64,000 nt of DNA from an uncultured delta proteobacterium (GCA_963823335.1 CAWGLD010000001.1:160001-224000), one strand, 5' to 3'. Shown: positions 345 through 19,041, counted from the first letter of the stretch. The notes: generated by a model not told the origin, from the letters alone. Translations and numbers: made by a program.

Positions 345-671
345 GAGGGGACTCTCTTTAAGCTTTTTTTCAGGCGACAGCCCGATTTGTTTTATCTCGA
401 AACGTATCCGTTATCGCGAGGTTCAATTTGAGGCCCAGATCTTCGCCCGGTACCCCGAGCGCCATTCCCAGGAGCTGTGGCAGATAGGGTGTTAAGTTTC
501 ATTGCCAGATTGGTATCCGATGTCCGGAATAAAATCGAATGCGTATTAAAACTATTATTTACAAAAATGCACTATCCTGAAATTTTCAAAAGCGCTTAAA
601 GAGACAGGAACTGGTGTTGATTGGGGCTCTAAAGAATTACACACATAGTGGTGGATAAAAATTACAGATAC

Positions 672-845
672 ATGGAGACAAGTCCAACTATCTGATAATT
701 GATAAAAATGTCAGATACCATATGGTCATCGCCAAGGTATCACGGTAGGGCCTATCAATGCAATATTTGGTCTGTTGCGATTATAATCGCACACCGGTAT
801 ATTTTCAACAGTCTGATATCTAACGAATTGTTGGATATTTCCAAC
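672..845. repeat. Paired L+R repeat unit 1 (empty)
   Basis: L motif ATGGAGACAAGTCCAACTATC...GATACC at 672-719; R motif TGCGATTATAATCGCACACCGGTA...CTGATATCTAACGAATTGTTGGA from 776. Confidence 0.75.
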
Positions 846-850
846 CTTTA

Positions 851-1291
851 TTAAGGTTTAATCCGAATTAATCTATGACCAAAAAGACAACGTCTTCTAT
901 CACATAGATCCTCCTGCACAGTAAATTCAAACTTGCTTTTTTCTATTTTCTTTATGGTATACTTTCCTGTATTAGTTTTACACGCAGGACTTTCTAACGG
1001 AATAAAAGTAATATCTTCCCCCTCTAATCTAATTCGGCCTTTATCTATCGGTCTCGTTTCAATTTTTTCGACACTATAGGCGATTCTATAAGTTCCATCA
1101 TTATAAAATTTAATAAATCTAATATACATATCATTGTCTGTGTCTGGCTTCCAAATACCAATTAAATCCTGCAATTGAATATCAGTTTCCGTGCATTGCC
1201 CATCATCAAATGGTAAATTTAAAATTAATATAATTGCCATAAAGAAAACTGAGAATCTTAACTGCATAGCTTCCTCCTTTTTTATTGGCAA
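851..1291 (-). CDS. Hypothetical exported protein
   Basis: 146-aa AT-rich ORF with hydrophobic N-terminus, an LIGIWK motif and paired Cys. True start is probably MQLRF, after an AAGGAGG RBS. Confidence 0.6.
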   Translation of the reverse strand: MPIKKEEAMQLRFSVFFMAIILILNLPFDDGQCTETDIQLQDLIGIWKPDTDNDMYIRFIKFYNDGTYRIAYSVEKIETRPIDKGRIRLEGEDITFIPLESPACKTNTGKYTIKKIEKSKFEFTVQEDLCDRRRCLFGHRLIRIKP

Positions 1292-1595
1292 GATAGATCA
1301 AAATTAGTCTATAACCTTTGCACAAATCATTAAATGAAGAAAATATCCGTTTCTGCAACCGGAGGAATATAGAGGTTCAGCAAGAGAGGGAACTTAGGAA
1401 CAAATCATCTTTTTATGTCGTTTGAATTTTGTTTTGAGCTGAGAGCATCACAGAAAGTTGGAATAAATATCAATACAATGCACTATTAATTGATGTCAAT
1501 ATTATACATGACCCATTAGCTCAAAAGTAATACGTTGAAGGGCATCCATAGGTTGCATTGGCAGTCGTTTTGATCCAGTAGCCACTATGTGATTA

Positions 1596-1842
1596 ATGGA
1601 GAGATGTCCAGTTATCAAGCTCAACCAAATTATTGCCGATACAATCTGGATATATTAAGTCTATCGCATCATTAAACCTGGTGTCAAACTGTAGACCCTA
1701 ATAACGCTGGTTTGTGCCAATAAAAAAGGGGCAATCCATCGCTCGGATTCACCCCTCTAATTTGTGATTATTTTCGCACATCGGTGGTTTTTAAGGTGCC
1801 TGATAACCTTGTTTTTGTTGGAGATAGGGCAGGTTTTTATAA
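1596..1842. repeat. Paired L+R repeat unit 2 (empty)
   Basis: L: ATGGAGAGATGTCCAGTTATCAAGC...AAATTATTGCCGATAC..TGGATAT (1596-1653). R: TGTGATTATTTTCGCACATCGGT..TTTTAAGGTGCCTGATA...GTTGGAGAT..CAGGTTTT (1763-1842). Confidence 0.8.
1721..1756 (-). terminator. Intrinsic terminator downstream of mttB
   Basis: On the minus strand: AGGGGTGAATCCGAGCGATGGATTGCCCC hairpin followed by a T run. Confidence 0.55.
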
Positions 1843-2033
1843 GCAAAAATGATTGCAGATATGCCTAAATCCCTTTAATGTCACAATCGTTTCGAGCCTG
1901 CAGTTTCTATTGCATCACTTCTGTCGTGATTATTATCGACTGTGTCTGAGTTATTGTCCTTGCCATCCTCATCCTTATGCATTGTTTCTTAGCCCGAAAA
2001 CATGCAATAATGGACAGAAGAAAGGACGCATTA

Positions 2034-3521
2034 TTATCCCTCTTTATCTCCGTCATAGATACCCAACTCCTCCTCTGCCTCTACGACGATGGATCGAACT
2101 TTTTTTAGAACATCAGCCGACAGTTGGGGAGGTTCATAGCTTTCCAGGATTTCGATCATCCTCTCATGGGAACGTTGGTATGCATCCTTGCTTCCGGCGG
2201 CTTCCCAGTCTTCCCGCATCCTCCGGTCGATCAATTGAGCCTGCGACTGCGATCGCATGTACTCAAAGGTAGTCTGGTGAGACAGATAATCCTTACCTAT
2301 TCCCATCTCCTTGATGACATCGATGGCAAGAGTAGTGTCGTTCACCGGAACTCCCTTCAATGAATGTAGAATCATCTCGGCAATCTCATGGTCCCACACG
2401 AGTTGAGCCAGGTCGAAAGTGATTCCCATCTCAAGCATTCCCAATCCGTAGATGACATTGGCACCTGCCAATGCGGGAAGAATGCCGGTGATGGTCTTTT
2501 CAAAACCCGCCTGGGCGTCGACCACCTTGCTGTCGCCCTATCCACCGGCCACAAAACATGGCAGGCTGTAGTAACGCGCTAGCCGCGCAACTGCTGCGCT
2601 GATCATGCCAGTTTCCGGTGATCCAACACTGGCCGTGGCCCTGCGCAGATCCAACGGGCATGTGGAACTGCCGTAAACGAACTGAGCTCCTTTGCGGGTC
2701 AATTGCTGCAGAACCAAACTGGACAAAAGTTCACAGTTTTGGATGATCAGTGTTCCGGCCAGGTGAACTGGCCCAGAGCCTGCCGACATTGCCATACCAA
2801 CTACGTTCAGCCCCATGTAACTCGTAGCGGCCTCCATGACGATGTCGCAGTGGTGTAACGGGAGTTTCAAGGGGCTGATGGGGCAAGTCGTAAATGACAG
2901 CAGCGGTCGTTTTTTTAGGCGCTCTCTGCCGCCTACGATGGCAGCGCACATCTCTGTAATTTTTTTGGCCTGGAAGCCGTCCACTGGGCACAGCCAGTGG
3001 TGCTTAGTGGTGTTCGTCAACGATGCTTCGGCATTATGGAGTGCCTGTGATTCCGGTGGTTTGTCGTGTGAACACATAGCCCGTTCATAAGTCTCGATAT
3101 TATCCAGGCTGTCAATGATCCTGGCCGCTTTTTCGATATCCGCCTTCGTGGTTTCCCGGTGTTCTCCGGTATAGGGGTCTACGAACATGATGCCTTCACC
3201 AAAATTGGTAAAGGTTACCCGATTATCTTCCAGCAGCACGTCATCCTCGGGTCTTCGGCCGCAGGCGTAATAGGTGCCGGGGGCGGAATTGATGGCATCT
3301 TCGATTACCCAGTGAGGAAACTTGACGACTTTATTTTTTCGATCGACGTCGCATCCCCCACCGTCAAATCGCTCCAGGGCCACTTCGTTTTCTACGAACA
3401 GTCCGACATCCTTCAGTATTTCCAGGGTTCCAAGATGGATTTCATGAACTTCGTCATCGGTCATGACGTTCAGGCTGAAACCTGAATTACGATTTTTTCC
3501 CGCTTTTAATCTCCGTTTCAT
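2034..3521 (-). CDS. mttB: Trimethylamine:corrinoid methyltransferase with in-frame amber (pyrrolysine) codon at 2540-2538
   Basis: ORFs 2538..3521 and 2034..2525 are one frame: ...LPCFVAGG-TAG-GDSKVVDAQAGFEK...; 495 aa on read-through. MttB-like motifs FTNFGEG, GSPETGMI, GMLEMGITFD; AGGAGG RBS. Confidence 0.92.
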
Positions 3522-3784
3522 AAAATCATAACCTCCTGTTTTTCTGTTATCGTTGGATTTGCCCGATTCCGCATGTGATGTTATCTTGCACTTACTTTTC
3601 TGGTATCAAGACTTTATTAAAAGCTATGTATAAGGAGAGACTATTGCAAAAAGGCCATTGGATGTTTGCTTTGATCTTACCGTATGAGTTAAACATGTCC
3701 AACCGTTTTTGTACACGGCTGTTGGTAAATAATGACGATAATCATCCGTCGGGGGTATCACAACATCTATCAAAGTGGTGATTG

Positions 3785-3842
3785 ATGGAGACAAGTCCAG
3801 TTATCAAACTTGATGAAATTATTGCCGATACCTTTTGGATAT
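3785..3842. repeat. L repeat of unit 3 (upstream of integrase)
   Basis: ATGGAGACAAGTCCAGTTATCAAACTTGATGAAATTATTGCCGATACCTTTTGGATAT; aligns with the copies at 672 and 1596. Confidence 0.85.
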
Positions 3843-3900
3843 CATAGAATAGCCTTGGCACTGGGCCATTGTCAAACATTTTAGCCAAAGGAGGTATGTC

Positions 3901-4738
3901 ATGAAAGTATCAAAAGCAGGAAAAATCTGGCTCGATTATCACCGAATCCATTCCAAAAAAAAATACGGTTAGGGCCCACTCTTTCGTCCTGGATAGTTTC
4001 AGAATCCAATTCGGTGATTACGAACTTGGAGATCTGTCCGTTGATAACATTCTGGATTTCATGAACCAGCTCACCGAAGGGCGTAAACCACAAACAAAAC
4101 GGGGTCGATTCACAAGCCTGTTAGCATTTCTTAATTTTTCCAAAAACAACCTCGATCCTGATTTCACCAATCCCTGCGACTCACCCATGCTGCGAAAACT
4201 GTTCCGGCCTAAGATAAAACCCCAATTTGATATTCTCGAAAAAGAAACCATGGACGAGATCATTTTTCGGACAGTTCATCCCAGAAACCGTTTGATGCTC
4301 GAACTCATGGCTCGGGGTGCCATGCGAATAGGTGAGGTGTTGAAAATTGTACCCAATGATATTTCTGAAAGGAAAATACTGTTAAGAGAGCCGAAAAGTG
4401 GCCGTGAGTGTGAAATGATATTTATTCCCCAAAAGGTGGCTGATCGCCTGAGAGAGTATGTCGAAACTCATAAAATCGGATTACAGGAAAGGATATTTCC
4501 GATTTGTTATGAGGCTGCTCGTTCGATAGTGGCAAAAGCTGGTAAGTTGGTTGGCATCCATCTCAGACCACATGATCTGCGACGCCATGCTGCAACATTT
4601 GCTTCCCGCTCAGGAGTGCCGCTTGAAATTGTGAGCAAGATTATTCTCCGGCATTCAAACTTATCGACCACCCAAATATATTTGGGCAGGATCAGCGATA
4701 CAGAGGCGTTGAAGTGGATTGAAACTATCTACAGCTAA
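3901..4738 (+). CDS. Tyrosine recombinase/integrase, frame shifted at an A9 run (3955-3963)
   Basis: GGAGG RBS and ATG at 3901 give MKVSKAGKIWLDYHRIHSKK; the +1 frame continues NTVRAHSFVL... into ORF 4061..4738. Catalytic R (AMRIGE), K (PKSG), HDLRR, H and Y (RHSNLSTTQIY) are present. Confidence 0.85.
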
Positions 4739-4783
4739 AAGGGGGAAAGGGTGGATTCCGTTGCCCGGAACCACCCTTCAAAC

Positions 4784-4862
4784 TGCGATTATTTTCGCAC
4801 ATCGGTACTTTTTAAGGTACCTGATATCTACCGAATCGTTGGAGATTCCACAGGTTTTATAA
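4784..4862. repeat. R repeat of unit 3 (downstream of integrase)
   Basis: TGCGATTATTTTCGCACATCGGTACTTTTTAAGGTACCTGATATCTACCGAATCGTTGGAGAT..CAGGTTTTATAA; preceded by a hairpin as in unit 2. Confidence 0.85.
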
Positions 4863-4903
4863 CGGATAGAAAACCTGAGGTACATAATAGCAGTTATCTG
4901 CAA

Positions 4904-5068
4904 TACAGTAGCCTGAGGGGGATGGATGCATATTACATAAAGCCGGACGACGACGATTTGAAACAGGCAATGGAAGTCTATACCGCTTGGTTCGATGAAC
5001 AACTGGTGGCTGCGGAACAGGCAAATGAAAAACAGCAAAAAGTGAAAATTCCCCTCCAATCCTCATAA
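4904..5068 (+). pseudogene. Probable C-terminal relic of a second phage-type integrase
   Basis: SSLRGMDAYYIKPDDDDLKQAMEVYTAWFDEQL resembles, from recall, the GH..GM..HY..P....L..AM tail of tyrosine integrases. No N-terminal part. Confidence 0.4.
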
Positions 5069-5472
5069 GCCATCCGCCTGCTAATGCTATCAATATCACA
5101 GGTCCTCGCGTCCTCCATAGTTTGATGTTTTTACATATCTGAAATTGGATTAGCAACTGGATGTTAAGATCATTTCGGGCAAAATATAATCCATACATCG
5201 ATACTTCGATAATGGTTGTTATACGCATGCCGCATCCCAACAAACTTGTAGATGGCGAGTATGGAACCTGTGATATCCCGAGACAACAATCTTGAAATAG
5301 CTAATCTCTTGACCCATCCTTCCAAATCAGGTACTAATTTTATAGTCGCTTAAATCACACCTGCTCTGATACTGAATGACATCATTGAACTTGACCTGAC
5401 CTGAATCTCGACCTGTCCGTATATTTCCAAGACGTATCATCTTCTTCAAACCCTAACCAGAAGGTGATCATC

Positions 5473-8400
5473 ATGCCCAACGAACAAAAAGTCACCAGAA
5501 AACTTAGAGCCATTCTTTCTGCCGATGTCAAAGGTTACAGCATCCTCATGGCGGACGATGAAGTTTCTACAGTCCAGACTTTGAAGGATTACCGGAATAT
5601 CATGTCAAATTATATCGAACAGCATGGTGGCAGGGTTGTGGATGCTGTTGGGGATAACCTGTTGGCGGAGTTTGGCAGTGTGGTGGATGCTGTTCAGTGT
5701 GCTGTTGAAATTCAAAAGAAACTAAACGAAAAGAACAAAGATATACCTGAAAATAAGAGACTTCAGTTCCGTATTGGCGTCAATATTGGTGATGTGATTC
5801 AGGATGGTGACAGAATCTTTGGTGACGGTGTCAACATCGCAGCACGGATAGAGGGGCTTGCAGATGCTGGCGGTGTTTGTATTTCTCGGAATGCCTATGA
5901 TCATATTAGGACCAAATTAGACCTGGGTTATGAGTATCTTGGTGAACACAGTGTAAAGAATATCAGCCAACCCGTCAGGGTTTACAAGGTTCTAATGTGT
6001 TACGTTGATGCTTCTGTGGCAGGAATATAAAGCCAAAATCCGGACGGCTATCAATATAGTCAGTTTTGCCATTTATATCGCCAGTGGGTCGGCCGCGTCG
6101 ATCCGGTCATGCGCCAGGTTCATCGTGCCGGCGAAAAGATGTTTGTGGATTACGCCGGTCAGACCGTTGGTGTCTATGGCCTGGCATCAAAACAAACCCG
6201 CGAAGCTCAAATCTTTATCGCCGTTCTGGGCGCTTCAAACTACACCTATGCCGAAGCTACCTGGACACAAAAATTGCCGGACTGGATCGCTTCCCACTGC
6301 CGGGCCTATGCATATATCGCCGGTGTCCCCGAAGTGACCGTTCCGGATAATTTAAAAAGCGGTGTTAAAGATCCTGTTTTTACGAACCGGACATCAATCC
6401 CACATATCTCGATATGGCCCAACACTATGGGACCGCCGTCATCCCGGCACGGGTTGCCAAACCCAAGGACAAGGCAAAGGTGGAAACCGGCGTGCTGATT
6501 GTCGAGCGATGGATCCTGGCACGGCTTCGCAACCAACAGTTTTTCAGCCTTCAGCAACTCAATGAAGCCATCAGAAACTTATTGTTGGATCTCAACAAAA
6601 AACCGTTTCAAAAATTGCCGGGATGTTGGCAATCGACGTTCTTGGCTGTTGATAAACCGGCACTCAAGTCTTTGCCGCAAACACCCTATGAGTTTGCGGA
6701 ATGGAAAAAAGCCCGGGTAAACGTCGATTACCACATTGAAGTGGATCGACATTATTACAGTGTCCCTTACAAACTGATTAAAAAACAGATTGATGTTCGC
6801 ATCACCAACAGAACCATCGAGTGTATCTATAACAACAAAAGAGTTGCCAGCCATATCCGCGACTACCGGAAAGGATGGCATACCACCGTAAAAGAGCATA
6901 TGCCTAAGTCCCATCAGAATATGGCCGATTGGACACCGGATCGTTTCATTCGCTGGTCTCAAAAAATAGGTTTGCAAACCACCCAGCTGATCATGTCGTG
7001 CTGGGATCCTGCGGACTCTGGTAAATTGATCGGTGAAGAACCGAGGCGTCCGAGAAAGAAATGGTTTTTACCTGTAGCTGTGGTTGCCGCAATCATTGTG
7101 ACATCCATAGTTTGGCATTTTTACCAAAAAGCGACAAAGCCTGATATTGAACCTGCTTCAGTGGGGGAAATGGCTTTCAGCCTACCGGACTAAGCCTTCC
7201 CTTGCCGTTCTTCCCTTTGACAATATGAGCGGTGATCCAGAGCAGGCGTACGTGAGTGATGGCATTACAGAAGCTATAATAATGTCGGTTTCAAAAATCC
7301 GTCACCTATTTGTTATCGCCAGGAACTCCACGTTTGTTTACAAAAACAAGGCCGTGAAAGTCCAGCAAGTAGCACAGGATCTTGGGGTCCAATATGTGCT
7401 TGAAGGCAGTGTCCAGCGTTCAGGCGATAGGTTACGTGTTACAGCCCAGCTTATCGATGCGTTGAATGGCCGCCATATTTGGGCTGAACAATATGATCGA
7501 GACCTGAAAGATCTCTTTGACATGCAAGATGAGATCACTATGGAGATTTTAGAAGCCATGCGGGTCAAACTCATCGAAGGGGAGCAAATATCAAAGGCCA
7601 AACGTCCCCAAAATGTTCAATCTGCTCTGAAGATTTATCAAGCTCAGGCTTACAGCCTTCGATTTACGCCGGAAGCAATGGTCACGGCAAAAAAGATAGC
7701 AGAAGAAGTGGTGGCCGTAGAACCTGAGTACGGGGAAGCTTACTATATCCTATCGACAATTCACATGATGGAGATGTGGTATGGCACGGGTAAGTCACCA
7801 AAGGATTCGCTTTTAAAAGCCACAGAGTATGCAGAGAAAGCTATTTCCCTTGATGATTCTCTTTCCCAGGCCATGGGCATTCTTGGGTATTGCTATGGAT
7901 TAAGCAGACAGTGGGACGAATCTGTTGCCGTAGCAGAGAAAGGCGTCGCAATCGATCCAAATGGAGCCGATGCTCACGCTTGGCTGGGTAATTGTCTGAA
8001 TTTTGCATATCGGTACAAGGACGCCATACCCTTTTTCGATAAAGCCATGAGACTTAATCCTTATCCGCCTCCGTGGTATTATTTTACGCTCGCCGTTTCG
8101 CATATTGGTCTGGGTCGATATGAGGAGGCTATTACCTTGCTGGAAAAGTCCTTATCTGTCTCGCCGAACAACCTTACAGCGTATTTGACTATTATACGAC
8201 CATATCTGTACACGGGCAGAGAGGATGAAGCTCGTGCAGCAGCTCAAAGAGTGTTACAGATCAATCCGAAGTTTTCAGTAGAAGATTGGGTTAGTAAAAT
8301 GCCTTACAAGGAACCGGGATATCCTGAGAAGGTGGCTGAGGCTTTGTACAAGGCGGGTATACCAGAAACACCACCACTCCCTCTACCCGATAAACCCTCA

Positions 8401-9575
8401 ATAGCCGTCCTCGCTTTCGATAACCTGAGCGGTGACCCTGAGCAGGAGTATTTCAGTGATGGCATTACCGAAGAGATCATCTCCGCCCTCTCAAAGACAG
8501 ATCAACTTTTTGTGATTGCTCGTAACTCATCGTTTGTCTACAAGGGCAAGCCGGTCAATGTAAAGCAAGTCGCAAGGGAATTGGGCGTGCACTATGTGCT
8601 CGAAGGCAGTGTCCGAATTTCTGAAGATCGGGTGAGGATTACAGCACAGTTGATCGATGCCATTTCGGGTCATCACCTTTGGGCGGAACGTTATGACCGT
8701 GATTTAAAAGACATCTTTGCCCTGCAAGACGAGATTACCATCAAGATAGTGTCCTCCCTGCAAATAAAGCTTACAGAGGGCGAGCAATCTCGTATGTGGA
8801 TCAAGAGATAATGCAAGAAACCTTGATGTTAAGTTAAAAACGATGGAATTATTGTCTCTTTGGCGAGAAGACACAATAGAAAGTCATATGCTGTATGGCC
8901 AGCTATCACAGGAAGTCATCGATATGGCTCCTAAATATCCGGTCGGCTACCTTACATTAGCTTGGCATCACTGGTGGCTTGCTTTGACACTTGGCAAATC
9001 ACCCCAAGAGAATTTGACAAAAGCCTTTAATCTGGCACAAAAGGTTCTTTCTATGGATGAATCTAATGCCGACGCCCATGCCTTATTAGGAAGTATCTAC
9101 ATGGTTATGAGGCAACATGATAAGGCCATTGCCGCAGGGAAGCGCTCTATAGAGCTTCAACCAAATGGGGCTATGGTACATGGGCTTTTGGGTTTTACAC
9201 TATACTTTGCGGATCAGCCGGATGAAGGCATTGTGTATCTTAACAAGGGGATTCGGCTCAACCCTTTTCCTGCCTCTTGGTACTTTCAACATTTAGGCAG
9301 CTGTTATGCGATTAAAGGGCAGTATGAGAAAGCTCTGACATTGTACAAGCAAGCACTTCTGAGAAGTCCCAGACACTTTCACTATACATTTGAGTTTAGC
9401 TATTACGTATGCTTTATTAGACCGGCAAAAGGAGGCTGACGCAGCTGTCAAAAAAGTCCTGGAACTCTATCCCAGTTTTTCTATTGAGCGTTTTTCCGCA
9501 ACACTGCCGTATAAAAATCAAGACGATCTTAAATTAGTAGTAGGTGCTATGCGTAAGGCTGGTTTGCCGGAGTGA
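5473..9575 (+). pseudogene. Class III adenylate/guanylate cyclase-TolB-like-TPR protein, disrupted
   Basis: Cyclase motifs (AILSADVKGYS, VGDNLLAEF, FRIGVNIGDV, GDGVNIAARIE), a TM helix, then two KPSxAVLxFDNxSGDPEQ + TPR modules. Interrupted by an istA fragment, with frame breaks near 7191, 8810 and 9390. Confidence 0.85.
5998..7004 (+). mobile_element. istA: Internal fragment of IS21-family transposase istA (frameshifted)
   Basis: [40 protein letters not shown] and [15 protein letters not shown] motifs; two or more frameshifts; no termini and no istB. Confidence 0.85.
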
Positions 9576-18117: not shown

Positions 18118-19041
18118 TCAAGAAATGCTTGGCTCTGCCTGCGCCAGCAATGCTGAGACCTTGTCCCGTCCGCCTTCCTTTGAACCATACAAGGCCTTGT
18201 CAGCCCTTTGGATAAAGGTAGCCAGGTCTTCCGGGGGGTTGTAGGCGGTCATGCCGATACTGATGGTAACGGATGCATTCTTTCCGGGCTCAGGGGTAAA
18301 GACAATTTCTTTGATGGCTTTCCGGATTCTTTGCGCAACAGTGAGAGCTTCTTCGCTGTCGGTCTCGGGAAGGATGATGGTAAACTCTTCACCCCCGTAC
18401 CGGTAAGCCGAGTCCATTTTCCGCAGCAGCAGCTTGACCACCTGCCCGAGACGCAACAGCACTTTGTCCCCCTCGAGATGGCCGTAACGGTCGTTGTAGT
18501 CCTTGAAATGATCGATATCCAGAATAAGCATGGTCAGCGGGTGGCTGTAACGTGTGGATCTGTCGACTTCACTCTTGAGCTGGTTGTAGAAATGCCTTGA
18601 GTTATATAGATTGGTAAGACCGTCAGTAATGGACAGCTTCTTCAGTTTCTCGAGCATCTGCAGACGTTCGTTTGTCAGCTTGCGCTCTTTCAGCACCCTT
18701 TTCAATCTGAGGATCAGCTCTTCGAACCGGACCGGTTTGAATACCAGGTCGCTGGCACCTTTGCTAATGGCCTCTTCATAGGAATAGTCGCCGGAGTATC
18801 CCGTCAGTACGATGACATCGATATTGTAATCTTTCTTGATCACATCCGTGAGCTCAAGACCATCCATTCCCGGAAGCATGATATCCGTAATAACGACATC
18901 GACCTGATGTTCTGCAAGCAGCACCAAGGCCTCTTCTGCGCTTTCGGCCGTCAAGGTCCTGAATCCGGACACGGTCACGAATTCCTGCATGGACAGTCGG
19001 ATGCCTTCTTCATCATCAACGATAAGTATGTCCGCTTCCAC
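18118..19041 (-). CDS. Response-regulator diguanylate cyclase (REC-GGDEF)
   Basis: Receiver domain, DGLTNLYN, and RYGGEEF with an RxxD I-site (RKMD). Confidence 0.93.
   Translation of the reverse strand: MEADILIVDDEEGIRLSMQEFVTVSGFRTLTAESAEEALVLLAEHQVDVVITDIMLPGMDGLELTDVIKKDYNIDVIVLTGYSGDYSYEEAISKGASDLVFKPVRFEELILRLKRVLKERKLTNERLQMLEKLKKLSITDGLTNLYNSRHFYNQLKSEVDRSTRYSHPLTMLILDIDHFKDYNDRYGHLEGDKVLLRLGQVVKLLLRKMDSAYRYGGEEFTIILPETDSEEALTVAQRIRKAIKEIVFTPEPGKNASVTISIGMTAYNPPEDLATFIQRADKALYGSKEGGRDKVSALLAQAEPSIS

Follow-up and report, generated by a model that had tools for sequence, protein, structure and literature searches.

Integrons are the textbook example of a platform on which site-specific recombination assembles single genes into arrays, and dif modules are the main other case. 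The attC sites of integrons are imperfect palindromes of 57-141 bp in which the folded single strand, and not the sequence, is conserved. Successive pdif sites alternate in orientation, and islands of the CIME (cis-mobilizable element) and tycheposon type consist of modules set apart by direct repeated att-type sites and employ tRNA or gene-end attB sites and large elements with arm-binding integrases. In this study, we analyzed a stretch of 64,000 nt from an uncultured delta proteobacterium (GCA_963823335.1, CAWGLD010000001.1; G000:C1:160001-224000 in our numbering), hereafter the window, which carries three copies of a paired repeat, L followed by R, one of them enclosing the gene for a small tyrosine recombinase. 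Its genome (G000) is a bin of 4.37 Mb in 11 contigs with a completeness of 93.9% and a contamination of 4.6%; every genome compared was a metagenome bin, and open reading frames (ORFs) were called mechanically. Based on the anatomy of the repeated units, their arrangement in arrays, and the points at which array segments are exchanged, this sediment sulfate reducer appears to shuffle genes in the manner of an integron, but with different components.

The original prediction, derived from the sequence of the window, had described two motifs that recur three times, always L before R, with one cargo gene between neighboring pairs. A repeat search of the window found this order to be constant in all three units, and the repeats are real and far beyond chance, with scores of E 1e-13 to 2e-21 for the window copies in the hidden Markov model (HMM) scan described below. 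The R copies (776-854, 1763-1841, and 4784-4862) show 61-73% identity to the reference copy over 79 nt, and the similarity of the L copies (Table 1) is longer between units 2 and 3, where 83% identity extends over 65 nt. Both the 16-bp palindrome TGCGATTATAATCGCA in R1 (776-791) and the inverted site ATCTAAC-GAATT-GTTGGAT (818-836) were found where they had been placed. Likewise, both cargo genes are located on the minus strand, and the predicted integrase, which matches PF00589 with E 8e-18, is enclosed by L3 and R3 and transcribed divergently from the neighboring cassettes, giving the integron-like topology that had been proposed. The first cargo gene had been thought to end 6 bp from R1; instead, its stop codon (851-853), 15 nt past GTTGGAT, overlaps the final bases of the R1 match.

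The HMM scan foreseen in the original prediction revealed a family that occurs genome-wide and in relatives. Using L and R models built on the three window copies and a genome-wide cut-off of E ≤ 0.01, we obtained 64 L and 69 R matches in G000, including 50 L/R pairs that form short units with a spacer of 46-48 nt, or of 110 nt in a few of them. Overall, G000 contains about 60 short units, while the window holds three, and these counts depend on models trained on G000. Together with fetched pieces of four same-genus genomes, 109 distinct units were available for comparison. Measured from GATAC... to ...GTTGGAGAnn, 77 of them were exactly 173 nt long and 99 had a length of 172-174 nt, despite the fact that the copies were only about 70-85% alike. 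Constant length at this degree of divergence points to units that are maintained by selection and are not products of decay. The L and R parts of the short units align to L3 and R3, and their middle aligns, moderately, to the recombinase leader as far as the ribosome-binding site. By these alignments, L and R are the two arms of one element, and the short unit is the recombinase element without its gene and hairpin. In unit 2, the gene has been lost, but the integrase 5' leader and a terminator-like hairpin homologous to that of the full element were retained (promoter and terminator calls in this study are consensus matches only).

The original prediction had also named the possibility that L and R are merely the ends of independently decayed integrase genes with invariant neighbors. 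One truncated integrase copy (C9:36267-36758) does adjoin an R arm but no L arm, and all genomes are bins, as would suit decay or an assembly artifact. Both are extremely improbable: 77 of 109 units have exactly 173 nt and the same deletion end points, which independent decay cannot produce, the family recurs in 11 of 40 relatives, which were assembled separately, G000 consists of only 11 contigs, and the neighbors of the units vary between genomes. A further unit (G000:C4:176412-177053) carries a 426-bp insert between L and R that is 98% identical to C8:25243-25668; to judge from this match, another small mobile element landed inside it.

Analysis of the unit edges revealed an imperfect 10-6-10 inverted repeat at the L edge, GATACATGGA-GAnAAG-TCCAGTTATC, in which columns 1-10 and 17-26 are inverted around 6 bp and the pairs 7-20, 8-19, 9-18, and 10-17 are complementary in 70-99 of the 109 units. 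Cores of Xer, Cre, or Flp usually have this layout of 10-bp arms around 6 bp. At the R edge, GTTGGAGA, the left arm is present a second time together with the first bases of the spacer (..TTGTTGGA-GA..), resulting in a site of the form ..TTGTTGGA / GAnAnn / cargo-side arm, of which the cargo-side arm is only partly conserved; both unit edges carry a direct TGGA|GA. The exact 12-mer GATACATGGAGA occurs 29 times in G000 (0.54 expected), with 21 occurrences at L matches. The eight further 12-mers were considered as clean empty sites and rejected, since most of them keep ...GATACC at the right distance and look like variant L arms in arrays. We also considered an attC-like or RNA-type folded site. 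However, RNAalifold found no consensus structure for the units on either strand, candidate helices showed only 0-2 double changes per pair among the 109 units, and in comparison with shuffled sequences only the fixed palindrome TGTGA-N7-TCGCACA in R folded better (z -3.05), all other z-values being close to zero. The folded-site idea was therefore dropped, and the lack of covariation and of a consensus structure makes the unit look like protein-binding double-stranded DNA rather than a folded strand. As a separate feature, the motif (CTG)AAAACCAAATATC(AG) was found 10-35 nt before the L core in 13 of the 109 units (e.g., G000:C7:213592-213620 and L046:5790-5830); it moves with the cargo side in the C7 duplication described below, and in a clade further away (L046/L051), the recombinase element has this motif at its left end.

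Nearly all units are organized in co-oriented arrays of 5-21 units (Table 1), which are chromosomal and up to 36 kb long, with neighboring units 0.5-5 kb apart and 1-3 unrelated genes between them. Along the coding strand, R', the spacer, and L' come after each gene or gene pair: the 60 inter-unit segments examined contain 116 ORFs of 80 aa or more, and 93 of these were located on the strand opposite to the unit. In regard to cargo, 233 ORFs fell into 202 blastp clusters. Pfam families were detected in 15 of 20 sampled proteins of the C7 array, 14 of them different, namely URO-D, SUI1, GDSL lipase, MFS, DnaJ, Ni superoxide dismutase, YceI plus rhodanese, acyltransferase-3, Lcl_C, DUF2141, a beta-lactamase family (twice), alpha/beta hydrolase, 4HBT, and YdhR. 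In the C1 array, nine of ten proteins belonged to Pfam families (group II intron reverse transcriptase, two GNATs, cytochrome c', IS256-type transposase, fn3, PAS-LuxR, SulP-cNMP, and AAT). The cargo of the cassette arrays includes Ni superoxide dismutase, transporters, hydrolases, and the probable pyrrolysine protein MttB of the window. As the original prediction had anticipated for a gene-capture system, the genes next to the units differ between genomes.

Comparison of array segments within G000 and with related genomes gave several cases in which cargo identity starts or ends exactly at a unit edge. On C7, a 1.1-kb block consisting of a unit and an Lcl_C cargo gene is duplicated at 99.5% identity, which starts at GATACATGGAGA of one unit and ends immediately past GATACATGGAGA of the next, and the units after the two duplicates are strongly different. 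Segment C9:45518-46495 is 98.5% identical to its counterpart in the related genome G005 from the L core on, with adjoining units about 75% alike and a degenerate core-like sequence at the other end of the match. At the opposite edge, cargo is ~95% identical from right after GTTGGAGA in the pairs C4:145240 and G007 as well as C1:1514830 and G005, the adjoining units again being only 70-75% alike. Finally, two cargoes at C4:168420-168436 are joined at the core, followed by a unit remnant of ~60 bp; the left cargo is followed by a full unit in G005, and the right cargo has another left neighbor in G004. This junction was first considered as an empty site, but as the ~60-bp remnant of L-start and R-end is present, it counts only as an L-core exchange point. 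Other within-genome duplicates had mixed or uninformative boundaries. Strict matches of the fetched pieces to the G000 arrays gave 67 evaluable ends, of which 11 were located within 25 bp of a unit edge (random positions 4.7%), seven of them at the L core and four at the R edge. Since cargo identity ends exactly at unit edges beside dissimilar units, both edges are exchange points and, in these alignments, behave as crossover sites.

We interpret the units as parts of a dedicated site-specific cassette-shuffling system that is integron-like in outcome and Xer/lox-like in site design, and would put the probability of this reading at roughly 0.6. It would account at once for arrays that run one way, for a unit length under selection, for the duplicated block of unit plus cargo, and for the exact boundaries. 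The nested recombinase would act in trans on any two cores of the same orientation, and recombination between them, probably via circular intermediates, would excise, insert, duplicate, and swap gene modules between units. Such module exchange would build chromosomal arrays of 5-21 units with unrelated accessory genes in one orientation, and the short units would be retained by selection as recombination sites.

The main alternative, which some of the same observations would also suit, is a selfish minimal integrative element of 1.07 kb, composed of the recombinase and attP arms, with 173-nt copies that resemble miniature inverted-repeat transposable elements (MITEs) and are moved in trans. 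This element would insert at a short TGGAGA-type core common in variable islands, and the genes between the units would be ordinary island DNA that the recombinase itself leaves in place. The direct TGGAGA is the same at both unit ends, as in attL and attR, the short units have the form of internal-deletion derivatives of the gene-bearing element, a constant cargo end beside different units in different genomes fits insertion or replacement of units, and recombinase contigs in metagenomes often measure no more than 1.0-1.4 kb, which a multi-copy repeat would lead one to expect. We nevertheless consider both the selfish element and its insertion into ordinary island DNA rather unlikely, as the units of an array all share one orientation, opposed to that of the genes, the units are clustered in a few arrays and not dispersed, and the duplicated block of unit plus cargo is bounded by two L cores. 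Moreover, a length kept at only 70-85% identity argues for function rather than recent bursts, and no clean empty target site was found, the extra 12-mers being mostly variant L arms and the C4 junction retaining its remnant of ~60 bp. A cassette system and a selfish element can, in part, be true together. The original prediction had offered exactly this pair, non-integron gene capture or a small recombinase element with non-autonomous derivatives, and it agrees with all tests performed.

Promoter-like hexamers were identified inside R on the coding strand (TTGAAA-17-TATAAT, 808->780; TTAAAA-16-AATAAT, 1794->1767 and 4815->4788). Together with a unit orientation that is strictly tied to gene orientation and a unit that is conserved in sequence rather than structure, they would be in line with units serving mainly as cis-regulatory punctuation (outward promoter and/or terminator) between independently expressed accessory genes, spread by whatever means and linked to the recombinase only historically. 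The hexamers are consensus matches only, 20 in the region compared to 10.7 expected in shuffled sequences, and regulation gives no account of exchange points exactly at unit edges or of a 10-6-10 core of the tyrosine-recombinase type. It also leaves unexplained why the recombinase is the sole protein gene ever nested in a unit, and we consider purely regulatory units improbable.

Several findings weigh against the preferred cassette-shuffling system. In the comparison of strict matches, 56 of 67 shared-segment ends lay away from unit edges, many of them inside diverging genes, and two different edges serve as boundaries, so that no single simple cassette definition explains both. Neither R-L fusions nor tandem-unit junctions occurred in G000 and all loci compared (0 matches), and no recombination product or circle was seen in the sequences compared. 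The roughly 60 units face one full recombinase gene, which is out of frame at its A9 run, and one truncated copy, and a close recombinase (E ≤ 1e-40) was found in 6 of the 11 unit-bearing relatives and in none of G003, G005, G012, G013, and G014, which are 74-99% complete. As all genomes are metagenome bins, mis-joins at repeats are possible, though identical stretches between units are short, and with promoter-like hexamers on the coding strand, part of the unit conservation could be regulatory.

Read from just past the A run, the recombinase showed its best family match to XerA (NF040815) with 101.8 bits (cut-off 220), compared to 40.6 bits for XerD (cut-off 329.6) and 38.6 bits for XerC (cut-off 335). 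The nearest solved structure is XerA of P. abyssi (4a8e, E 3.6e-11), with HxxR, H, and the Tyr nucleophile aligned. PF00589 was the sole domain detected (residues 73-208 of the 225-aa ORF), while an N-terminal arm-binding domain was not found. In the scheme of Smyshlyaev et al. (2021; PMC8138268), the enzyme would class as a 'simple' tyrosine recombinase without an arm-binding domain. That it is not an integron integrase, as first proposed from its length and the lack of the IntI-specific insertion, was borne out: the protein of about 278 aa reached 33.7 bits with the integron integrase model (NCBIfam TIGR02249, cut-off 265), and a scan of G000 revealed no integron integrase, the best matches being two Xer-like genes of 310-327 aa elsewhere in the genome (C3:153942-154766 and C5:425551-426267) with 88.5 and 74 bits. 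Searching G000 by tblastn, we found two copies of the recombinase, the one in the window and the truncated copy beside an R arm on C9.

At the A9 run, the frame of the recombinase gene shifts by one base between the ATG and the gene body. Of 40 related loci covering the N-terminus, 21 displayed A9 in the same out-of-frame arrangement and one had A10, also out of frame, while A8 (five loci) and a sequence without a run (AAAGAAAA, 13 loci) were in frame. As the A9 state is kept in copies that are 61-97% identical and stem from many separate assemblies, it is not a sequencing error, and the apparent frameshift is best read as a conserved A9 recoding site, not as damage. One genome holds both an A9 and an A8 copy, which are 91% alike (L046 and L051). 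Long A runs cause transcriptional slippage, and this is the likeliest route to the full-length enzyme, with ON/OFF switching at the DNA level as the alternative. Full-length enzyme would be made only after loss of one A at the run, and either slippage or switching would keep recombinase levels low.

Compared to integrons, the system likewise consists of chromosomal one-way arrays of unrelated, mostly single-gene modules with a repeated site 3' of each gene. As in integrons and clusters of attC sites lacking integrases (CALINs), the sites far outnumber the recombinase genes, and in some array-bearing genomes no recombinase was found. A group II intron at a fixed offset from the site, described below, recalls the group IIC-attC introns (PMC3001079). 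In contrast to integrons, the recombinase is not IntI and its gene is nested within a copy of the site, not beside attI. Furthermore, the units have 173 nt, are conserved in sequence, and lack a covariation-supported hairpin (judged by length, RNAalifold, and covariation), and exchange points lie at both L core and R edge instead of at the single crossover point (R' box) of attC.

With the pdif/dif modules of Acinetobacter, the system shares gene modules that are bounded by short Xer-type cores and shuffled between replicons (for the pdif side, see PMC6449649, PMC13141974, and PMC7399989). The L-edge core is a double-stranded 10-6-10 site, in agreement with the dif-type layout of inverted arms of ~11 bp and a spacer of 6-8 bp. 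Unlike dif and pdif, a dedicated recombinase that scores below the cut-offs for XerC, XerD, and XerA is located inside the repeat, each core forms part of a 173-nt unit, and the arrays lie on the chromosome, with their units uniformly oriented. Archaeal XerA and other 'simple' tyrosine recombinases provide the best family and structure match, with about 278 aa and no arm-binding domain; here, however, the score stays under the XerA cut-off, and the gene, flanked by arms of its own, is mobile and present in multiple copies instead of encoding a single chromosome-dimer resolvase.

Insertion sequence (IS) elements with MITEs, such as those of the IS3 and IS630 types, resemble the system in their combination of an autonomous copy with many gene-less internal-deletion copies and in an enzyme gene that requires a frame change on a homopolymer run. 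IS elements use slippage on A/T runs for transposase expression. They differ in that the enzyme here is a tyrosine recombinase and not a DDE transposase, the copies are arrayed and co-oriented and not scattered, and neither terminal inverted repeats nor a target duplication are present, the ends GATACATGGAGA... and ...GTTGGAGA sharing a direct TGGAGA. Integrative elements of the lambda type are set apart by the N-terminal arm-binding domain that the recombinase lacks. As in CIMEs and tycheposon islands, modules are separated by repeated direct att-type sites; unlike there, each module is a single gene, and the repeat derives from the recombinase element as a self-contained piece of 173 nt. Altogether, the system resembles integrons in outcome, Xer/dif or lox in site design, and IS elements with MITEs and slippage in life style, and lacks defining features of each. 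A full-text literature search, largely confined to sources outside subscription journals, revealed no account of such a system.

A database search at E ≤ 0.001 gave 4303 relatives of the recombinase, of which the top 120 are at least 67% identical; many of them are located on the short contigs of 1.0-1.4 kb mentioned above. As close homologues are this abundant, the system seems to be common in sediment metagenomes yet unannotated. All 63 related loci found belong to metagenome-assembled genomes of the Desulfobacterales type. In seven related loci, the window element recurs as a discrete block of 78-93% identity with unrelated flanks. L and R flank the recombinase gene at the same offsets in 8 of the 63 loci, and at least one arm was detected in 19 of 63, using HMMs trained only on G000. 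Units were identified in 11 of 40 relatives, namely in six of nine genomes of the same genus, ten of 14 of the same family, and one genome of another family, again in one-way arrays, while a close recombinase was present in 13 of 40. Four genomes of the same genus (G001, G004, G005, and G007) share synteny solely with the left flank of the window array; it stops at the array edge, at about 293-487, and no units are found there. Among more distant recombinase loci (55-68% identity), inspection by eye revealed arms in a like arrangement in L046/L051 and L057, which have different edge sequences and escape the G000-trained HMMs. Support for the system outside the close clade thus comes from few loci.

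Table 1. Features of the window and of the unit arrays. Positions without prefix are those of the window; C numbers denote contigs of G000.
Feature	Position	Strand	Remarks
Unit 1, short form	661-853	+	L 661-730, 46-nt middle, R 776-853
Unit 1 L-edge core, GATACATGGA-GACAAG-TCCAACTATC	667-692	+	
Unit 1 R-edge GTTGGAT	830-836	+	
Cargo 1	851-1291	-	146-aa (or shorter) protein, hydrophobic N-terminus, no Pfam family
Unit 2, 110-nt-spacer form	1585-1840	+	L core 1591-1616; GTTGGAG 1817-1823
Cargo 2, mttB (trimethylamine methyltransferase family)	2034-3521	-	In-frame TAG 2538-2540; PYLIS 2441-2540
Full-length recombinase element, 1.07 kb	3780-4846	+	L3, leader, gene, hairpin, R3
Unit 3 L-edge core, GATTGATGGA-GACAAG-TCCAGTTATC	3780-3805	+	10-6-10 imperfect inverted repeat
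Promoter-like TTGCCG-17-TAGAAT upstream of recombinase gene	3822-3850	+	Consensus match only
Tyrosine recombinase gene	3901-4738	+	ATG 3901; 278 aa if one A fewer
A9 run, putative recoding (slippage) site	3955-3963	+	
GC-rich hairpin GGGTGG...CCACCC	4749-4776	+	Directly past recombinase stop codon
R3	4784-4862	+	Palindrome TGCGA-ttatttt-TCGCA; edge GTTGGAG 4838-4844
Promoter-like TTAAAA-16-AATAAT in R3	4815->4788	-	Consensus match only
143-bp module adjoining unit 1	486-628		Recurs beside arrays in related genomes
Array	C7:199779-235836		About 21 units
Array	C1:85954-117305		13 units
Array	C9:11196-47418		
Array	C4:145177-181432		
Array	C4:537754-546789		
Array	C1:1509689-1514824		
Array	C5:91222-97714		
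Array			The window's three units
c-di-GMP-I aptamers	L120:3361-3445, 3822-3906, 9002-9086		

Regarding the neighborhood of the window units, a PYLIS_3 element is located directly 3' of the mttB TAG (Rfam 73.3 bits, gathering score 38). The in-frame TAG together with the adjoining PYLIS_3 makes it probable that this cargo encodes a pyrrolysine-containing trimethylamine methyltransferase carried as a cassette. An Rfam scan of window positions 500-5200 (E ≤ 1) gave no RNA family for the units, PYLIS_3 in mttB being the sole real match. Copies of the 143-bp module adjoining unit 1 were found with 83-86% identity at G004:C17:218943, G004:C3:274174, G007:C4:259881, and G007:C1:12729; at two of these four other sites the module is located just upstream of the start of a minus-strand gene, and it may be a mobile promoter or leader piece. 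To the right of the recombinase element, an adenylate/guanylate-cyclase-type gene (5464-6030, +) has many copies of 67-75% identity in relatives, including copies inside arrays (e.g., G001:C11:342109, G005:C11:250770, and G004:C14:2307), and seems to be a common cargo. Past this gene, fragments of an IS21-like transposase were found at 6109-7193.

In the C1 array, a group II intron was identified at G000:C1:96366-98443 (L120:11366-13443), with 79.5 bits for RF02012 and an ORF of 481 aa comprising RVT_N, RVT_1, and GIIM. The intron start lies at a fixed offset, 16 nt after TCTCCAT on the coding strand, beside five different units in two genomes, the other four sites being located near 18908, 14007, and 10193 of locus L095 and near 19330 of C9. 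By its position, the intron looks like one that homes site-specifically to the L-edge palindrome of the unit. An ORF of 131 aa beside a unit (C1:96397-96792) was discarded as not being a gene, as it overlaps the ribozyme of this intron. At the edge of the same array, three cyclic di-GMP-I riboswitch aptamers with 75-84 bits occur within 6 kb (G000:C1:88361-94086). Other ORFs resembling tyrosine recombinases were detected beyond or inside three arrays, at C7:240566-241057, C1:1516352-1516516, and C4:151821-152108 (open frames of 398, 230, and 118 aa, respectively); they may represent island integrases or partners of the system.

Taken one step further, the system would represent a second, independently evolved bacterial gene-capture platform, for which we suggest the term 'nested-recombinase cassette array'. 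A scarce Xer-like enzyme, made by slippage at A9, would recombine double-stranded cores at the two edges of the 173-nt unit, itself a derivative of the enzyme's gene, and so collect and reshuffle single accessory genes across the Desulfobacterales, accompanied by site-targeting group II introns of the system's own, as in integrons. We put this forward tentatively, as a possibility with somewhat less than an even chance. If it is true, such a second platform with an unrelated site design would mean that the array-building solution evolved more than once, and it would add a compact new pair of recombinase and site for laboratory work. Desulfobacterales dominate carbon and sulfur cycling in marine sediments, and the system would help to explain their large accessory gene pools.

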